Source: Minisyncoccota bacterium
GTDB lineage: Bacteria; Patescibacteriota; Minisyncoccia; Phycocordibacterales; UBA12079
Direction: 5' to 3'
NCBI GenBank assembly: GCA_028689435.1
Contig: JAQTWD010000002.1
Span: 1-48,970, forward strand
Length of the DNA: 48,970 nt
Both the position numbers and the translations under genes were made by a program. Shown here one piece after another: positions 3,695 through 45,348 of this stretch. Under the pieces are notes generated by a model. The model was not told where the DNA came from. It saw nothing but the letters and a program-made list of their open reading frames with translations, and made no database searches. Each line of letters opens with the position of its first letter. The stretch's first letter is position 1.

Positions 3695-3785
3695 AAAATT
3701 TAAAAGTTAAAAATCAAAAGTCAAAATTACAATTAAAAAAAAGCGGTTGTAAGGACGAACCCTTGCAACCGCTTTTTCCTGTGTG

Positions 3786-4247
3786 TCACCGCATCTTGCT
3801 GATACGGAATGACACAACAGGATTACCAACTCTTGTGTCCGGCGGTAACTTCATGTCGAAGTACCGACAGCCTGTGTTACTAAAGATCTCTTTGGGACTG
3901 TTTATGTTCCAAAGTATCACTTCAGCACCGTCCAGCCCCTCCAGAGCATTTGCGCACCGGACATAAACACGGTCGTCACTAATGTTCTGATCAACAAAAT
4001 TGAACCATCCCCAGTGACCTTTAGGTACATGCACCGGCTCCGCTAGCCATTCGTCTTTCGCCGGATACACGAACTCCTCGCGATCCGGGTTGATTGTTTC
4101 CAGATACGCCCTTGGCCATTCAACCTTGGGGGTTGCTGACTCGGGAGAATCTTTTGTACAACTCGGCATCGGAAGTGATGCCGTCAAAATTACGATAACC
4201 AATAAAACGACTATTGTCGTCGGCCATCCCCATGTAATTGTTTTCAC
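3786..4247 (-). CDS. membrane-anchored/secreted hypothetical protein, coupled to the SPFH gene (G+C-rich island)
   Basis: GTG start overlaps the upstream TGA stop (GTGA). The SD GAGGAGG lies inside the upstream gene's last codons. N-terminal TM helix followed by a Cys (…LPMPSC). No family recognised. Confidence 0.6.
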   Translation of the reverse strand: MKTITWGWPTTIVVLLVIVILTASLPMPSCTKDSPESATPKVEWPRAYLETINPDREEFVYPAKDEWLAEPVHVPKGHWGWFNFVDQNISDDRVYVRCANALEGLDGAEVILWNINSPKEIFSNTGCRYFDMKLPPDTRVGNPVVSFRISKMR

Positions 4248-16490: not shown

Positions 16491-16613
16491 AAATTTACTA
16501 AAATAAATACTAATCTACGAATTATACTAATAATACGAATGCGATACAAATATTAAAAATAATATACATTAGTAATTATTCGTATAATTTGCATCATTCG
16601 TATATTAGTATGT

Positions 16614-17831
16614 TTACCTCAATAGTTCTATTGCCTTATCCATTTGAGGATCCAAACCATCTTCAAATTGTTCTTGAGTAATCTCGACATTTACATCTGG
16701 CTCTAAACCATTATTTGAAATTGAATTTCCATTTGGAGTAAGCCATTTTGCCACTGTTATCTTTAAAGATGTATCAGGTGTCAAATTGATCAATTCTTGA
16801 ACAGAACCTTTTCCAAAAGTCTTCGTTCCTACAATTTTAGCAATTCCGTGTTCTTTTAATGCACCTGCTAATATTTCAGATGCAGAAGCTGAACCGCCAT
16901 TGACCAGTATAACAAATTTAAGATTGTTATTAAATATATTATATCCCTTACTTCTGTGTACTTTGTCTTCCTCATCAACACCGTAATCCTCGGTCACGAT
17001 TATTTTACCTGCTGGCAAAAACCAACTTGCCATATCTACGGCAGCCTCTAGGTATCCTCCTGGGTTTCCTCTTAGATCCAAAACCAATTTATTTGTTTTT
17101 GATTCTACAAATTCTCTCAAAGCATCTCTGAACAAATTGGGAGAAGTCGCAGAAAAATTATACAAACTGATTATAAAAACATCCCCCCTTTTTTCGGTGT
17201 CTATTGTTGGTATATTTATATTATCTCTGATAACTGAAATTTCTATCAAATCAGCAACACCCTCTCTGGAAATTGTCAGCTTAACTGCAGTTCCTTTTTC
17301 TCCTCTGATAAGTTTTACTGCTTGATCGGTACTAAAATTTGAGGTTATTTGTTCATCAATTTTTATAATCTTGTCCCCTGGTTTTATACCGGCTTTTTCA
17401 GCAGGAGTATTTTTTAAAGGAGAAACGACAGTAATAATTCCGTCTCTTATTCCTATCTCCATACCAACACCACTAAATGACCCTTGAATATCATCGTTAA
17501 ACATTTCGCTTTCAGCAGGTGGCATAAAAACTGTATAAGGGTCTTTATATGAAGAAGCCAACCCTTGGATAGCACCCCATACTTTGTCTTGATCTGTTAT
17601 ATCGTCAGGAGAAACATATTTCTCGTTCAAAATATTCCACGCTCTCCAAAAATCACTGAAATCGGCTTTTGTTGTGTTCAAAGTATCTTCTTTGTTAATA
17701 ACATTGTTTATGGCTTCTGCACCCTTTTTTTGATTTTTTCCAAAATAAAAACCTATTCCAAAAATCAAACTAATTAAAAAAATAGCTACAATAATCGGAA
17801 CAATTTTTTTCAATGATAAATTTTTACTCAT
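16614..17831 (-). CDS. ctpA: S41 family carboxy-terminal processing protease
   Basis: TM anchor, PDZ-like segment (GIKPGDKIIKID), then LRGNPGGYL and GGSASASEILAGAL catalytic motifs. Confidence 0.85.
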   Translation of the reverse strand: MSKNLSLKKIVPIIVAIFLISLIFGIGFYFGKNQKKGAEAINNVINKEDTLNTTKADFSDFWRAWNILNEKYVSPDDITDQDKVWGAIQGLASSYKDPYTVFMPPAESEMFNDDIQGSFSGVGMEIGIRDGIITVVSPLKNTPAEKAGIKPGDKIIKIDEQITSNFSTDQAVKLIRGEKGTAVKLTISREGVADLIEISVIRDNINIPTIDTEKRGDVFIISLYNFSATSPNLFRDALREFVESKTNKLVLDLRGNPGGYLEAAVDMASWFLPAGKIIVTEDYGVDEEDKVHRSKGYNIFNNNLKFVILVNGGSASASEILAGALKEHGIAKIVGTKTFGKGSVQELINLTPDTSLKITVAKWLTPNGNSISNNGLEPDVNVEITQEQFEDGLDPQMDKAIELLR

Positions 17832-17928
17832 CCCGTTAGAAATTTTAATATTTATAATGTCTTAATTTTTTAAAAGTTTAAATATTGTTTATATATATAA
17901 TTCCGTATGAATAAAAATCTCTAACGGG
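17832..17928 (-). mobile_element. TIR element copy B (97 bp) abutting the ctpA start codon
   Basis: Minus strand: CCCGTTAGAGAT...ATTTCTAACGGG, followed directly by ATG. Flanked by identical hexamers ACTCAT (17826-17831 and 17929-17934), which read ATGAGT on the gene strand. Confidence 0.7.
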
Positions 17929-18159
17929 ACTCATATATGCAAAGAATTATATCATAGAGATAATATTTTTATAAACAATATATTTAAACATATTTAAAAA
18001 AATAATGAATCAACAATCTTAAACTTCTCACGATCGTGAAAAGTTTAAGATTGTTTATATTTTTTATATTTTAATTTTGACTACAAATCATACGGTCGTA
18101 TGATTTGTAGTCAATAATTTTTTTATACTTTAATTGTTAAATAAGAAATTAAATGACGA

Positions 18160-32244: not shown

Positions 32245-32274
32245 TTGCATTTGAATTTTTGTTTATGCTAAGAT
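32245..32274 (+). promoter_or_regulatory. promoter positioned to start transcription at the upstream ATGAAT copy
   Basis: TTGCAT, 18-nt spacer, TGcTAAGAT (extended -10). The -10 ends 7 nt before ATG 32282. Confidence 0.5.
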
Positions 32275-32287
32275 ATCTGCAATGAAT

Positions 32288-32406
32288 CCCGTTAGAGATA
32301 ACGGATGAAAAAAAGAGACACTAGCCGAAAGTGATTTATCAATTAAATTATATAAAGATCAGAGGCACGACTTATATATAAAAGTCCGTGTTCTATCTCT
32401 AACGGG
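32288..32406 (+). mobile_element. TIR element copy A (119 bp) abutting the lepB start codon
   Basis: CCCGTTAGAGATA (32288-32300) is the exact inverted repeat of TATCTCTAACGGG (32394-32406). Flanked by ATGAAT at 32282-32287 and ATGAAT at 32407-32412 (the lepB start). Confidence 0.75.
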
Positions 32407-32955
32407 ATGAATAATTCTAATGAAAACTTTTTTGTAGAAGTCTTAAAGTTCTCACTACTTACTTTAATTGTTGTGCTTCCTTTCAGGATGTACATCGCAA
32501 AACCATTTATTGTTGATGGTGCATCGATGAGTCCGACATTTGAAACAGGTCACTACCTCATTGTTGATGAAATCTCGTACAGAATAGAAAATCCTCAAAG
32601 GGGCGAAGTGATAATTTTCAAATATCCGAAAGATCCAAGTCGTTTCTTTATAAAAAGAATTATCGGATTACCAAACGAAACCGTTGAAATAATAAATGGA
32701 AAAGTAACAATCTACAACGAAGAAACGCCTAATGGAGTACATTTAGAAGAAAATTATGTTGAAAAAACATCTCGGGAAAATATAAAGGTTAAATTGGGAG
32801 AAAATGAGTATTTTGTTATGGGAGATAACCGAGGAAATAGCTCTGATTCAAGGTTTTGGGGAGCATTACCAAAAGACATGATTATTGGAAAAGCATTTTT
32901 ACGACTTTTGCCCATTACCAAAATAGATGTATTGCCCGGAAATTTTGATTATTAA
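32407..32955 (+). CDS. lepB: signal peptidase I
   Basis: DGASMSPT (catalytic Ser), KRIIGLPNE (catalytic Lys), GDNRGNSSDSR. Confidence 0.9.
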   Translation: MNNSNENFFVEVLKFSLLTLIVVLPFRMYIAKPFIVDGASMSPTFETGHYLIVDEISYRIENPQRGEVIIFKYPKDPSRFFIKRIIGLPNETVEIINGKVTIYNEETPNGVHLEENYVEKTSRENIKVKLGENEYFVMGDNRGNSSDSRFWGALPKDMIIGKAFLRLLPITKIDVLPGNFDY

Positions 32956-43518: not shown

Positions 43519-43997
43519 AAAATCTCTCCTCCTTCTTGTCGATGTTTTGTATTTAAAAAGACATTTTTTCTACAATATAAAATACCATACAAAAAACACT
43601 TCCGTCAATATAAGACTTCAAAATTTACCAAAATCTTGCTTCTGTAGATTTTGAAATAATACATACACAAAAACAAAAATCCTCTCAATTGAGAGGATTT
43701 TTGTTTTTGTGTAGGCTTGTGTCTAACAAGCCAATAAATTTTAATGTCTATTTTTTTCTGCCTGAAAAAATATAAACATATCGTACTGTTTCCATATAAA
43801 AGAATATAACATTTTTTAAAAAAAGAAATGTGTATAACCGAGGTAAACATACTAATATACGAATGACACTAATAATACGAATACTATACAAATGTTGTAA
43901 TTTCGTATTCGTATTGCATTAGTATAATTCGTATCATTTGTATATTGGTATGTCTATCTTAAAATTTAAAAAAATGTATGATATTAACATCATGATT

Positions 43998-44112
43998 CCC
44001 GTTAGAGATCGCGGACACTTGCGGGGAATATTTAACAAAAGAAATTTATTAGAATTAATTTAAATAGATAGTATGCGAGATTTAACAAAGTCCGCGTCCT
44101 ATCTCTAACGGG
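43998..44112 (+). mobile_element. TIR element copy C (115 bp) abutting the tsaD start codon
   Basis: CCCGTTAGAGAT (43998-44009) pairs with ATCTCTAACGGG (44101-44112). Inner helix CGCGGAC/GTCCGCG. Flanks are ATGATT (43992-43997) and ATGAAA (44113-44118). Confidence 0.7.
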
Positions 44113-45348
44113 ATGAAAATATTGGCAATTGAGACATCTTGCGACGAGACAGCAATCAGCATAATTGAAGCAAAAGGAGGACTTAAAAAACCTCAATTCA
44201 AAATCTTGGCTGACACAGTTATCTCTCAAATAAATATCCACAAAGAATATGGAGGTGTCTTCCCCGCTCTTGCAAAAAGAGAACACGTAAAGAACTTACT
44301 TCCGATATTAGGGGAAACTTTGAAGAAAGCGAAGATGCTATCATTTGAAAAAAATCACAAAACACAAATTACAAATTACAAACAAAACACAAAATACAAA
44401 ACACAAATTACAAAAATCAAAAAAATTTTAGAAAGAGAGGTTGAAATGGTTGAGCCTTTGTTAGATTTTTTAAAAAATAACAAAATACCAAAAATAGATG
44501 CAATCGCTGTGACACAGGGGCCAGGACTAGAGCCTGCTCTTTGGACAGGAATAAATTTTGCAAAGGCTTTGGCGTTGGCGTGGGACAAACCTTTTATTCC
44601 TGTTAATCATATGGAAGGACACCTCGTCGCTTCGCTCCTCAAGTTAAAAGTAACAAGTAGCAAGTATAAAGGAGTTGAGTTTCCTGCTCTTGGTTTATTG
44701 ATAAGCGGAGGTCATACAGAGTTAATAATGGTTAAAGATTGGATGGATTATAAATTGATCGGTCAAACCAGAGACGATGCTGTCGGAGAAGCTTATGACA
44801 AGGTAGCAAGAATGCTTGGCCTTCCCTACCCAGGTGGTCCTGAAATATCAAAACTCTCCGAAGAATTTTCTAAAAACTACTCACTACCCACTACTCACTA
44901 CCCACTACCCCGTCCAATGCTTCATACAAACGATTTTGATTTTTCTTTTTCCGGATTAAAAACGGCTGTTTTGTATACCGTTAAAAATATTAAAAACCAT
45001 GCCTACCGGCAGGCAGGAATGACACCCGAAATCAAAAAAGAAATTTGTGCAGAATTTGAAAATGCGGTTGTTGATGTTTTGCTTTTTAAAACGAAAAAGG
45101 CTGTTGCAAAAAATAATATAAAGACATTGATTTTGGGAGGTGGTGTAACCGCAAATAAAAAAATACGAAAAGAATTTAAAAAATTGGAAAAAGAATTAGG
45201 TATTGATGTTTTAGTACCAGATGCAAAACATTCTACCGACAATGCTGTGATGATAGGAATTGCAGGTTATTTTAGATATTTAGATAACAAGGTTCTACTA
45301 CCAAACAAAACAGCAAAGATCAGAGCAGAAGGAAATTTGGCATTATAA
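44113..45348 (+). CDS. tsaD: tRNA N6-adenosine threonylcarbamoyltransferase TsaD, with four in-frame low-complexity insertions
   Basis: IETSCDET, HMEGH, SGGHT, GLPYPGGP and FSFSGLKT motifs. 411 aa versus about 340 aa typical. Confidence 0.9.
   Translation: MKILAIETSCDETAISIIEAKGGLKKPQFKILADTVISQINIHKEYGGVFPALAKREHVKNLLPILGETLKKAKMLSFEKNHKTQITNYKQNTKYKTQITKIKKILEREVEMVEPLLDFLKNNKIPKIDAIAVTQGPGLEPALWTGINFAKALALAWDKPFIPVNHMEGHLVASLLKLKVTSSKYKGVEFPALGLLISGGHTELIMVKDWMDYKLIGQTRDDAVGEAYDKVARMLGLPYPGGPEISKLSEEFSKNYSLPTTHYPLPRPMLHTNDFDFSFSGLKTAVLYTVKNIKNHAYRQAGMTPEIKKEICAEFENAVVDVLLFKTKKAVAKNNIKTLILGGGVTANKKIRKEFKKLEKELGIDVLVPDAKHSTDNAVMIGIAGYFRYLDNKVLLPNKTAKIRAEGNLAL

Follow-up and report, generated by a model that had tools for sequence, protein, structure and literature searches.

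Miniature inverted-repeat elements at the rebuilt start codons of lepB, ctpA and tsaD in a Minisyncoccota bacterium, and their probable relation to a 276-bp element encoding a GIY-YIG nuclease

What kind of sequence can lie exactly at the start codon of a gene and leave the gene whole? The question is raised by lepB, ctpA and tsaD in a 48,970-nt stretch of DNA from a Minisyncoccota bacterium (contig JAQTWD010000002.1, assembly GCA_028689435.1; G+C 34%), which is called the window throughout. Each of the three genes, whose identity is confirmed by Pfam, begins directly behind a sequence with perfect inverted ends of 12-13 bp that abuts its start codon. The best explanation, which we regard as probable, is that these sequences are miniature inverted-repeat transposable elements (MITEs) of a horizontally spread family, whose 276-bp form encodes an Slx1/UPF0213-type GIY-YIG nuclease of about 84 residues, and that the start codon is rebuilt on insertion.

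The case is clearest at lepB. As the initial annotation of this DNA had it, the left arm CCCGTTAGAGATA (32288-32300) and the right arm TATCTCTAACGGG (32394-32406) are exact complements, and ATGAAT stands on both sides of them, at 32282-32287 and again at 32407-32412, where it forms lepB codons 1-2; the promoter, TTGCAT and TAAGAT at a distance of 18 nt with an ATG 7 nt further on, and the upstream open reading frame (uORF) MNPVRDNG had been described correctly as well. Judged by TsaD similarity, the window belongs to a relative of Candidatus Campbellbacteria, within the Parcubacteria. It has two close relatives with conserved synteny (TsaD 87% and 84% identical), and in one of them, L122 (labels of this kind denote individual loci or relatives compared with the window), the site is found empty, as had been predicted for a lepB orthologue: the region reads TTGCAT-ttgaatttttgtttgtga-TAAGAT-atctgca-ATGAATAATTCTAAAGAA, with promoter, spacing and a single ATGAAT as in the window, that is TTGCAT-N18-TAAGAT-7 nt-ATGAATAATTCT without the element. 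The sole difference between the two loci is 125 inserted bases in the window. The promoter falls just under the threshold of a generic scan, yet is conserved in this empty site. Since the single ATGAAT follows the same TAAGAT by 7 nt, lepB was leaderless before the insertion, in agreement with the earlier proposal. The features of the locus are as follows.

32245-32250, plus strand: -35-like hexamer TTGCAT of the lepB promoter, read directly; same hexamer and spacing in the element-free L122
32269-32274, plus strand: -10 hexamer TAAGAT, 18-nt spacer from the -35 hexamer, 7 nt before the original ATG; read directly and in L122
32282-32308, plus strand: original lepB start codon, now opening the uORF MNPVRDNG and its stop; identified from the empty site in L122
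32283-32286, plus strand: left 4-bp target-site duplication TGAA, placed by the register test on 124 copies
32287-32407, plus strand: the lepB copy, 121 bp with the terminal T:A pair, a non-autonomous element (MITE) in sense orientation; absent in L122
32287-32300, plus strand: left terminal inverted repeat T-CCCGTTAGAGATA; terminal pair as in 119 of 124 copies
32301-32306, plus strand: 5' strand of the inner helix, ACGGAT; compensatory changes among 24 copies
32384-32389, plus strand: 3' strand of the inner helix, GTCCGT, followed by a 4-nt bulge at 32390-32393
32394-32407, plus strand: right terminal inverted repeat TATCTCTAACGGG-A, its last base being the A of the rebuilt lepB ATG
32407-32955, plus strand: lepB, signal peptidase I, S26 (Pfam Peptidase_S26, E=1e-43)
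32408-32411, plus strand: right target-site duplication TGAA, placed by the register test

The same architecture had been noted at ctpA and tsaD, and is read there too.

16614-17831, minus strand: ctpA, S41 C-terminal processing protease with a PDZ domain
17831-17929, minus strand: the ctpA copy, 99 bp with the terminal pair (arms 17832-17928), flanked by ATGAGT and ATGAGT
17827-17830 and 17930-17933, minus strand: duplication TGAG (plus-strand CTCA)
17934-17932, minus strand: original ctpA ATG; its uORF, 17934-17878, encodes MSPVRDFYSYGIIYINNI and a stop
17946-17951, minus strand: TATAAT, the -10 hexamer of the ctpA promoter, separated from the original ATG by 11 nt and kept in relatives
43977-43982, plus strand: -10-like TATGAT at the tsaD copy, separated from its upstream ATG by 9 nt, read directly
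43992-44063, plus strand: uORF of 23 codons, opened by the upstream ATG at 43992
43993-43996 and 44114-44117, plus strand: flanking 4-mers TGAT and TGAA
43997-44113, plus strand: the tsaD copy, 117 bp with the terminal pair (arms 43998-44112), sense, flanked by ATGATT and ATGAAA
44113-45348, plus strand: tsaD

With up to two mismatches allowed, the arm motif occurs seven times in the window against 0.58 expected, a number reached in none of 100 shuffles; six of the seven matches are the paired arms of the three elements, and a relaxed scan of the window with up to three mismatches per arm yields no copy beyond those at lepB, ctpA and tsaD. Each of the three forms a long closing helix (z = -6.6, -4.6 and -5.4 against shuffled controls), which comprises 17-20 bp or more and ends at the AUG. 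At lepB the closing helix had been thought to end 1 nt before the real AUG; the helix itself is real, and it extends to the A of the AUG, whose partner is the T at 32287. A consensus scan finds no internal outward promoter in the three copies, and inspection of the right end and of the sequence before the real AUG finds no Shine-Dalgarno sequence, as had been stated.

Members of the family outside the window were collected from one genome per species with the pattern CCCGTTAGARAT-N65-95-ATYTCTAACGGG and exact arms, which gave at least 119 loci. Exact-arm copies occur in at least 119 species, of Saccharibacteria, many Parcubacteria lineages, Kazan, Omnitrophota, Planctomycetota, Deltaproteobacteria, Elusimicrobia, Nitrospirae and others; the copy statistics below refer to the exact-arm copies among the matches listed (n = 125, or 124 in the register test). 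The consensus has terminal inverted repeats of 13-14 bp, Y-CCCGTTAGARAT ... ATYTCTAACGGG-R, and the MITEs measure 89-123 bp, with only short uORFs inside. In 119 of 124 copies the base that precedes CCCG is complementary to the one that follows CGGG (T:A in 63, C:G in 55), and the inverted repeat is therefore one pair longer than first described. Outside this terminal pair stands a 4-bp direct repeat, TNNA, whose outer bases are almost always T and A and whose central two bases match in 90 and 89 of the 124 copies, as against 46-48 with shuffled partners; it is perfect in 75, most commonly as TGAA/TTCA and next as TAAA/TTTA. The sixth base of the flanking hexamers, by comparison, matches between flanks no better than chance. 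The target-site duplication read into the hexamers is real, then, and its length is 4 bp rather than 6. The architecture is therefore A-TGAA-[T...A]-TGAA-N, in which the rebuilt start codon consists of the last base of the element and the duplicated TG; elements ending in C...G read ATGAA-C...G-TGAA and yield a GTG start, for example at the L1 and AtpD-like N-termini of L004 and L005. A left flank ACTTGT recurs in the unrelated loci L014, L076, L077 (5102-5204) and L084, and as GCTTGT in L026; it stands in place of a repeat of the ATGNN of the gene, with no matching duplication.

Start codons were counted with two cut-offs for the open reading frame (ORF) behind the element. With at least 50 codons, 66 of the 125 copies have an ATG, GTG or TTG directly after them, in one orientation only; with at least 80 codons, 62 have a start at distance 0, 20 at 1-30 nt and 20 at 31-99 nt. 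The association with start codons is strong, and not universal: the expectation that copies elsewhere would also sit at start codons with matching flanks is borne out, and the idea that the element targets start codons holds for about half of the copies, the family not being confined to them. In Deltaproteobacteria, for example, a well-conserved 93-nt subfamily occupies G-TAAA sites, and at some of these a Shine-Dalgarno sequence follows close downstream; two of its copies in different Deltaproteobacterial genomes (L022:6935-7004 and L101:2200-2259) are flanked by tandem gagttaagag-like repeats. The 63 downstream proteins have matches to 114 different Pfam families (tRNA synthetases, PGK, FtsW, ClpP, UvrD, SecG and ribosomal proteins among them), a spread on which a regulon-specific leader was rejected. 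Many MITEs can be oriented by an asymmetric end, ..CC-T before the right arm, which is the end of the nuclease gene described below; among start-codon copies that have it, about 30 lie in sense and 5-6 in reverse orientation. The inner helix with its 4-nt 3' bulge, already said to covary on the basis of the window copies, shows compensatory changes in four of seven pairs among 24 family members, a degree of covariation that no shuffle reaches; its one-sided changes are G:U pairs on the sense strand, a pattern that fits structure in mRNA, or in one DNA strand. In 16 of 48 copies the upstream ATG is preceded, at a distance of 6-7 nt, by a -10 box close to the consensus, other positions mostly having 0-1 and at most 3. 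Taken with the empty site in L122, these -10 positions show that the ancestral genes were leaderless.

Mobility is seen in the comparison of relatives. The tsaD loci of L120 and L122 are without an element, in an upstream region that has diverged, and L120, the 87% relative, carries a near-identical copy of the same subfamily at the rplU start instead (ATGAAT and ATGAAA as flanks). At ctpA, a 78%-identical relative (L125/L126) likewise carries an element at this site, with the same promoter in front of it and ATGAAT and ATGAAA as flanks, while a 94% relative and four others (L124, L155-L158) have none there; a precise empty site cannot be demonstrated for ctpA, the upstream region of the closest relative being unalignable. 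The two same-site ctpA copies agree in 23 of 24 arm positions and in 51 of 94 aligned columns of the interior. In L006 (5899-6277) three different elements, the middle one with the variant repeats CCCGTAGTAGAAAA and TTTTTCACTACGGG, stand in tandem before a membrane-protein gene, each followed by ATGAAT, which is what repeated insertion into a regenerated target would give. The earlier view of the element as MITE-like is thus well founded: it has inverted repeats, a duplication of fixed length, a small gene-less size with several copies, presence/absence polymorphism with a precise empty site, and tandem and nested copies. Elements also stand at the start codons of Ctp proteases at L115:7332-7440 and in the window (17832-17928), the L115 protease being 53% identical to that of a Campbellbacteria relative; the insertions in L115 and in the Campbellbacteria relative are probably independent hits on the same gene.

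Some features surround the copies in the window. Upstream of the tsaD copy (43935-43997) some 52 nt, among them the -10-like TATGAT of this copy, have no counterpart in L120 and L122; these and the mismatched TGAT/TGAA could stem from a swap of flank or promoter by recombination between two copies. The motif AGTATAATTCGTA (16516-16528, 43921-43933 and six weaker sites) has eight matches with up to two mismatches against 1.6 expected, is found upstream of tsaD in the relatives too, and is probably a shared promoter module of this genome. A perfect 20-bp hairpin with a T-rich tail between corA and the ctpA promoter (18012-18055, minus strand) looks like a terminator.

Where such elements come from is indicated by two longer arm-bounded units among the matches listed, which represent the 276-bp form in two phyla. 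In L058 (Parcubacteria RAAC4_OD1_1, 3889-4164) the 276 bp read repeat-TATTT-ATG, 84 codons ending in GGC GCT TCC TAT CTC TAA, and CGGG, with the stop codon TAA inside the right repeat; in the other copy the stop lies just past it. That other copy, in L002 (Omnitrophota, 3774-4159, 386 bp), consists of this 276-bp unit and a 106-bp MITE of the family, for which the nuclease gene served as the site of nesting, and adjoins, on the upstream side, the Shine-Dalgarno sequence of a host ATPase gene. In L029 a third nuclease gene adjoins a MITE and ends in a decayed right repeat. The L058 protein is a GIY-YIG domain (PF01541, E=3.6e-16; second Pfam value 1.7e-15) that retains Y..Y, Y.G, R, H-N and E at the catalytic positions; its 84 residues make up the catalytic domain only, the group I intron endonuclease model remaining far below cut-off, and the closest solved structures are the UPF0213 proteins 1ZG2 and 1YWL. 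These are classed as Slx1-family proteins from bacteria, with minimal stand-alone GIY-YIG domains, and eukaryotic Slx1 is a structure-specific endonuclease (PMC1564403).

The link between the nuclease gene and the repeats extends far beyond these copies. A search of 1.84 billion protein representatives yielded 6,320 homologues, and of the best 150 of these (cluster representatives) 26 contain repeat-encoded residues, as against none of 240 control proteins: at the C-terminus ...[YF]LTG or ...L[SF]LTG and ...SY[LF], at the N-terminus M-x-PVR[DN]. One of them, P0255 (MNPVRDHSL-MFYTYVIK...RRFLSLTG), reads as a nuclease joined in frame to the ATGAAT of a host gene, its end lying at the point where the rebuilt AUGA would supply the stop. 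That the nuclease ORF fills the 276-bp unit exactly, with its last codons formed by the repeat, and that this recurs across distant homologues, argues for a long co-evolution of gene and ends. We infer that the nuclease, as the only gene in the unit and one that would have co-evolved with its ends, is the mobilising enzyme. The initial annotation did not recognise the element as a deletion derivative of one that encodes a GIY-YIG nuclease.

Other GIY-YIG genes were met along the way. A different minigene in L006 (2217-2543, minus strand), with a direct repeat of about 45 bp on both sides and a palindrome (TATTCCGCAGTAGCTCTCCGCCAGCTGGCGGAGG.AGAGCA) inside this repeat, may represent a further type of hairpin-associated GIY-YIG cassette; in L001 (4385-4705, minus strand) a GIY-YIG ORF starts right after the apparent 5' half of a tRNA gene (GGGCCCATAGCTCATCCGGTAGA...). 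One paper counts GIY-YIG genes among those passed from Patescibacteria to other groundwater bacteria, and says no more of them. Matches to the right-end 15-mer in 27 viral contigs are read as chance, none having a partner arm at element distance and one having an arm 54 nt away.

How the host gene is translated behind the element is a separate matter. The old ATG opens a uORF that reads the left repeat as P-V-R-D/N, and the right repeat provides for each of the three frames: a UAA 4 nt before the rebuilt AUG (present at lepB as the TAA in its right repeat), a UGA within AUGA, or an in-frame run into the gene. Among the 48 copies in which frames and -10 positions were counted, the uORF frame is without interior stops in 14, the other two frames in 5 and 2; the 14 uORFs end at -7 in nine cases, overlap the AUG in three and continue into the gene as a fusion in two (L035, L113). 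At L161 and L162 the start of the uORF overlaps the stop of an upstream gene (adenylate-kinase-type; Pfam ADK in L162), and between its end and the rebuilt start of the gene that follows there are 4 nt; the element has been inserted into an ATGA coupling junction with the chain unbroken. A Saccharibacterial subfamily encodes the peptide MNPVRNRG...NRIGFGR...ASASYF, represented by 13 such small ORFs in the protein collection; its third codon positions are the most variable (1.20 against 0.74 and 0.89 bits), which is only suggestive, ancestry and selection not being separable in these data. A word-indexed search for long ORFs with the N-terminus MNPVRN returned peptides of 35-56 residues only; the fusions came from the exhaustive nuclease search. 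A translational relay is suggested by the many copies in which an ORF stays open between the old ATG and the right-end stops. In L035 (5240-5332) and L113 (7300-7410) the reading frame opened by the upstream ATG continues across the entire element into the host gene, giving a predicted N-terminal extension of 33 or 39 residues.

From these pieces the following course of events emerges. Insertion duplicates a 4-bp target T-N-N-A; where this is bases 2-5 of an ORF (A|TGAA), the last A or G of the element together with TGAA forms ATGAA or GTGAA, and the rebuilt start at the right end keeps the host ORF intact. The original ATG stays where ribosomes are delivered, at a leaderless 5' end or in the ATGA stop/start overlap of an operon, and opens a short ORF into the element (M-x-P-V-R-D/N...). 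In the full-length copies and many MITEs this ORF extends to the right-end stops, the UAA at 4 nt or the UGA in AUGA, and in a few copies it joins the host gene in frame. Translation of the host gene would then depend on termination-reinitiation coupling. Residence at start codons may then reflect both target choice, TGAA being regenerated and reused, and the survival of harmless insertions only.

A number of observations count against this explanation. No GIY-YIG gene lies within the 49-kb window, and its three copies are non-autonomous, MITE derivatives. The duplication is imperfect in 49 of the 124 copies; 23 of the 125 lack a start codon over the first 100 nt, and in some lineages the sites occupied are TAAA ones that lie away from starts. 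The frame counts are not independent, as the copies share ancestry. Nor do AT-rich copies, the three of the window among them, show a clear shortage of stops in the uORF frame, so that the relay does not explain the expression of lepB, ctpA and tsaD here. Only two full-length copies were seen at the DNA level, neither with a perfect 4-bp duplication. Comparison of the MITE peptides with the nuclease by hhalign profiles finds no similarity, and blastn of the interiors, MITE against nuclease DNA, finds none that is significant; clear sharing is limited to the last few repeat-encoded codons. Finally, to our knowledge no GIY-YIG nuclease is known to transpose DNA alone, and a separate, unseen transposase is possible.

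This last point, with the scarcity of full-length copies, also speaks for the nearest rival, in which the sequences are ordinary MITEs of an unseen DDE-type insertion sequence and the GIY-YIG minigene is a passenger or a frequent insertion partner; inverted repeats with a fixed 4-bp duplication are, after all, the classical DDE signature. Against it, no arm pairs 0.5-3 kb apart occur among the matches listed, the 970 ORFs from the roughly 1 Mb of sequence flanking the at least 119 loci cluster without a recurrent transposase-like family, and the exact fit of the nuclease ORF between its repeats in many distant homologues speaks for a long shared evolution of gene and ends; we consider this rival quite unlikely. 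That the element is not mobile at all, being a host cis-regulatory RNA (a structured leader, thermosensor or protein-binding hairpin) over a regulon, would account for arms that are better conserved than the interior, as in the ctpA pair, and for the orientation bias and helix covariation. It is largely refuted because of the empty site and the duplication, and the downstream genes are unrelated in function, presence varies at the same gene between close relatives, copies are stacked in tandem and nested in one another, and Rfam has no such family (no match at the gathering threshold in the whole window, or at E<=10 around the element). As a general account it is very improbable; secondary exaptation of individual copies is possible.

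The two remaining rivals concern translation. In the window the uORFs stop after 8, 18 and 23 codons, 98, 46 and 49 nt before the real AUG (lepB, ctpA and tsaD, respectively), and the AUG must be reached in some other way. The closing helix might be cut by RNase III, or by a different nuclease specific for double strands, to release a leaderless or near-leaderless mRNA that begins at the rebuilt AUG, as the length of the window helices and their end at the AUG would allow; the G:U pairs of the inner helix on the sense strand only also fit structure at the RNA level, and the Correia elements of Neisseria are cleaved by RNase III. The enzyme, however, cuts inside helices with a 2-nt stagger rather than at their base, so that a leader of several nucleotides could still pair; strict conservation of the arm sequence would be unneeded; and the uORF design of other copies, with UAA at -7 or an AUGA overlap, points to ribosomal coupling. 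Cleavage is the main alternative for the window genes, and in our judgement an unlikely one. The best guess for them is that translation of the uORF opens the closing helix, and that ribosomes either reinitiate 46-98 nt downstream or bind the freed AU-rich leader. A ribosome that hops from the upstream AUG over the element to the duplicated AUG-AA, as in the programmed bypass of T4 gene 60 and the mitochondrial byp elements, could exploit the identical pentamers that flank a compact hairpin and the closeness into which this brings the two AUGs. The identity is explained by target duplication, though, which many copies also show at non-coding GTAAA sites; neither a stop nor a hungry codon follows the take-off site at the upstream second codon, and the sixth base differs between the hexamers in most elements. 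Such hopping is barely conceivable here.

Other identities were tried and set aside. An integron attC site has the order RYYYAAC ... GTTRRRY and lies at the 3' end of a cassette, whereas here the order is GTTAGAG ... CTCTAAC on both strands, at the 5' end of scattered housekeeping genes. No transposase gene, as in a classical insertion sequence, lies between the repeats. A GIY-YIG homing endonuclease gene would share the catalytic domain; an appended DNA-binding domain and allelic homing were not found, and the target genes are many and unrelated. For an intron-like insertion within genes, ORFs over reconstructed empty sites were considered, and the few candidates inspected fit a start codon just past the element. 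A described precedent was found neither in Rfam nor in the searchable literature, most subscription journals lying outside that search, which accords with the initial annotation's remark that it knew of none.

The chance that a new class of mobile element is represented by the full-length form is substantial. More tentatively, and as a possibility that we would not yet call probable, it may be the smallest autonomous one known (276 bp), its sole gene being a bare Slx1-type nuclease encoded in part within its own inverted repeats. It would specifically colonise ribosome entry points, both leaderless start codons and ATGA junctions between genes, borrow the start of host transcription and translation for its own ORF and hand the ribosome back through a rebuilt start ("translationally transparent"), and so spread, along with its MITE offspring, through essential genes in the tiny genomes of the candidate phyla radiation (CPR) and across phyla. 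If the explanation favoured here is true, selfish DNA can persist in gene-dense, reduced genomes by inserting into essential start codons and rebuilding them, and the large, enigmatic family of stand-alone Slx1/UPF0213 GIY-YIG proteins, often mis-annotated as "excinuclease ABC subunit C", gains a role in mobile elements; should the nuclease alone mobilise the element, this would be a very compact system of DNA insertion. For annotation it would mean that hundreds of genes in CPR bacteria, Omnitrophota and Planctomycetota carry a hairpin of about 100 nt and a spurious short ORF before the true start, some with N-terminal extensions or fusions. Copies would also mark leaderless starts and translational-coupling junctions in phyla without transcript mapping.

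Among known systems, the prokaryotic Slx1-like/UPF0213 proteins (1ZG2, 1YWL; YhbQ type) belong to the same family as the nuclease by sequence, with the catalytic positions conserved, and have been treated as vertically inherited repair or structure-specific nucleases, without description as repeat-bounded mobile cargo (PMC1564403). The nuclease of the 276-bp element, a bare catalytic domain of 84 residues, lies in this Slx1/UPF0213 branch. In that it differs from the T4 Seg proteins and I-TevI, which are likewise selfish DNA with a GIY-YIG nuclease as the only gene; these have a C-terminal DNA-binding domain, are copied into allelic sites by repair, and lack inverted repeats, duplication and gene-less derivatives. 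REPIN-RAYT and IS200/IS605-PATE, compared here like the remaining systems by their general features, resemble the family in that hairpin repeats are dispersed by one small single-domain nuclease and non-autonomous derivatives outnumber the gene. Their enzymes are of the HUH/Y1 type, acting on single-stranded hairpins without target duplication, and RAYT genes lie outside the repeats and are inherited vertically, in contrast to the GIY-YIG nuclease, true inverted ends, 4-bp duplication and cross-phylum spread found here. The Correia/NEMIS elements of Neisseria come close in size (about 100-150 bp), in having inverted repeats, a duplication and many copies but no transposase, and as co-transcribed hairpins that can affect the expression of neighbours. 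They have 26-bp repeats, a TA duplication and no preference for start codons, whereas here the duplication is a 4-bp TNNA, half of the copies lie at the start of an ORF, the terminal base rebuilds the start codon, the repeats cross phyla, and the partner encodes a GIY-YIG nuclease instead of a DDE transposase. Like the Rickettsia palindromic elements, inteins and introns, and byp, finally, these elements are tolerated with the host product intact; there the means are in-frame translation, splicing and hopping, respectively, and here the gene is kept by duplication of its start codon, probably with a relay of the ribosome.

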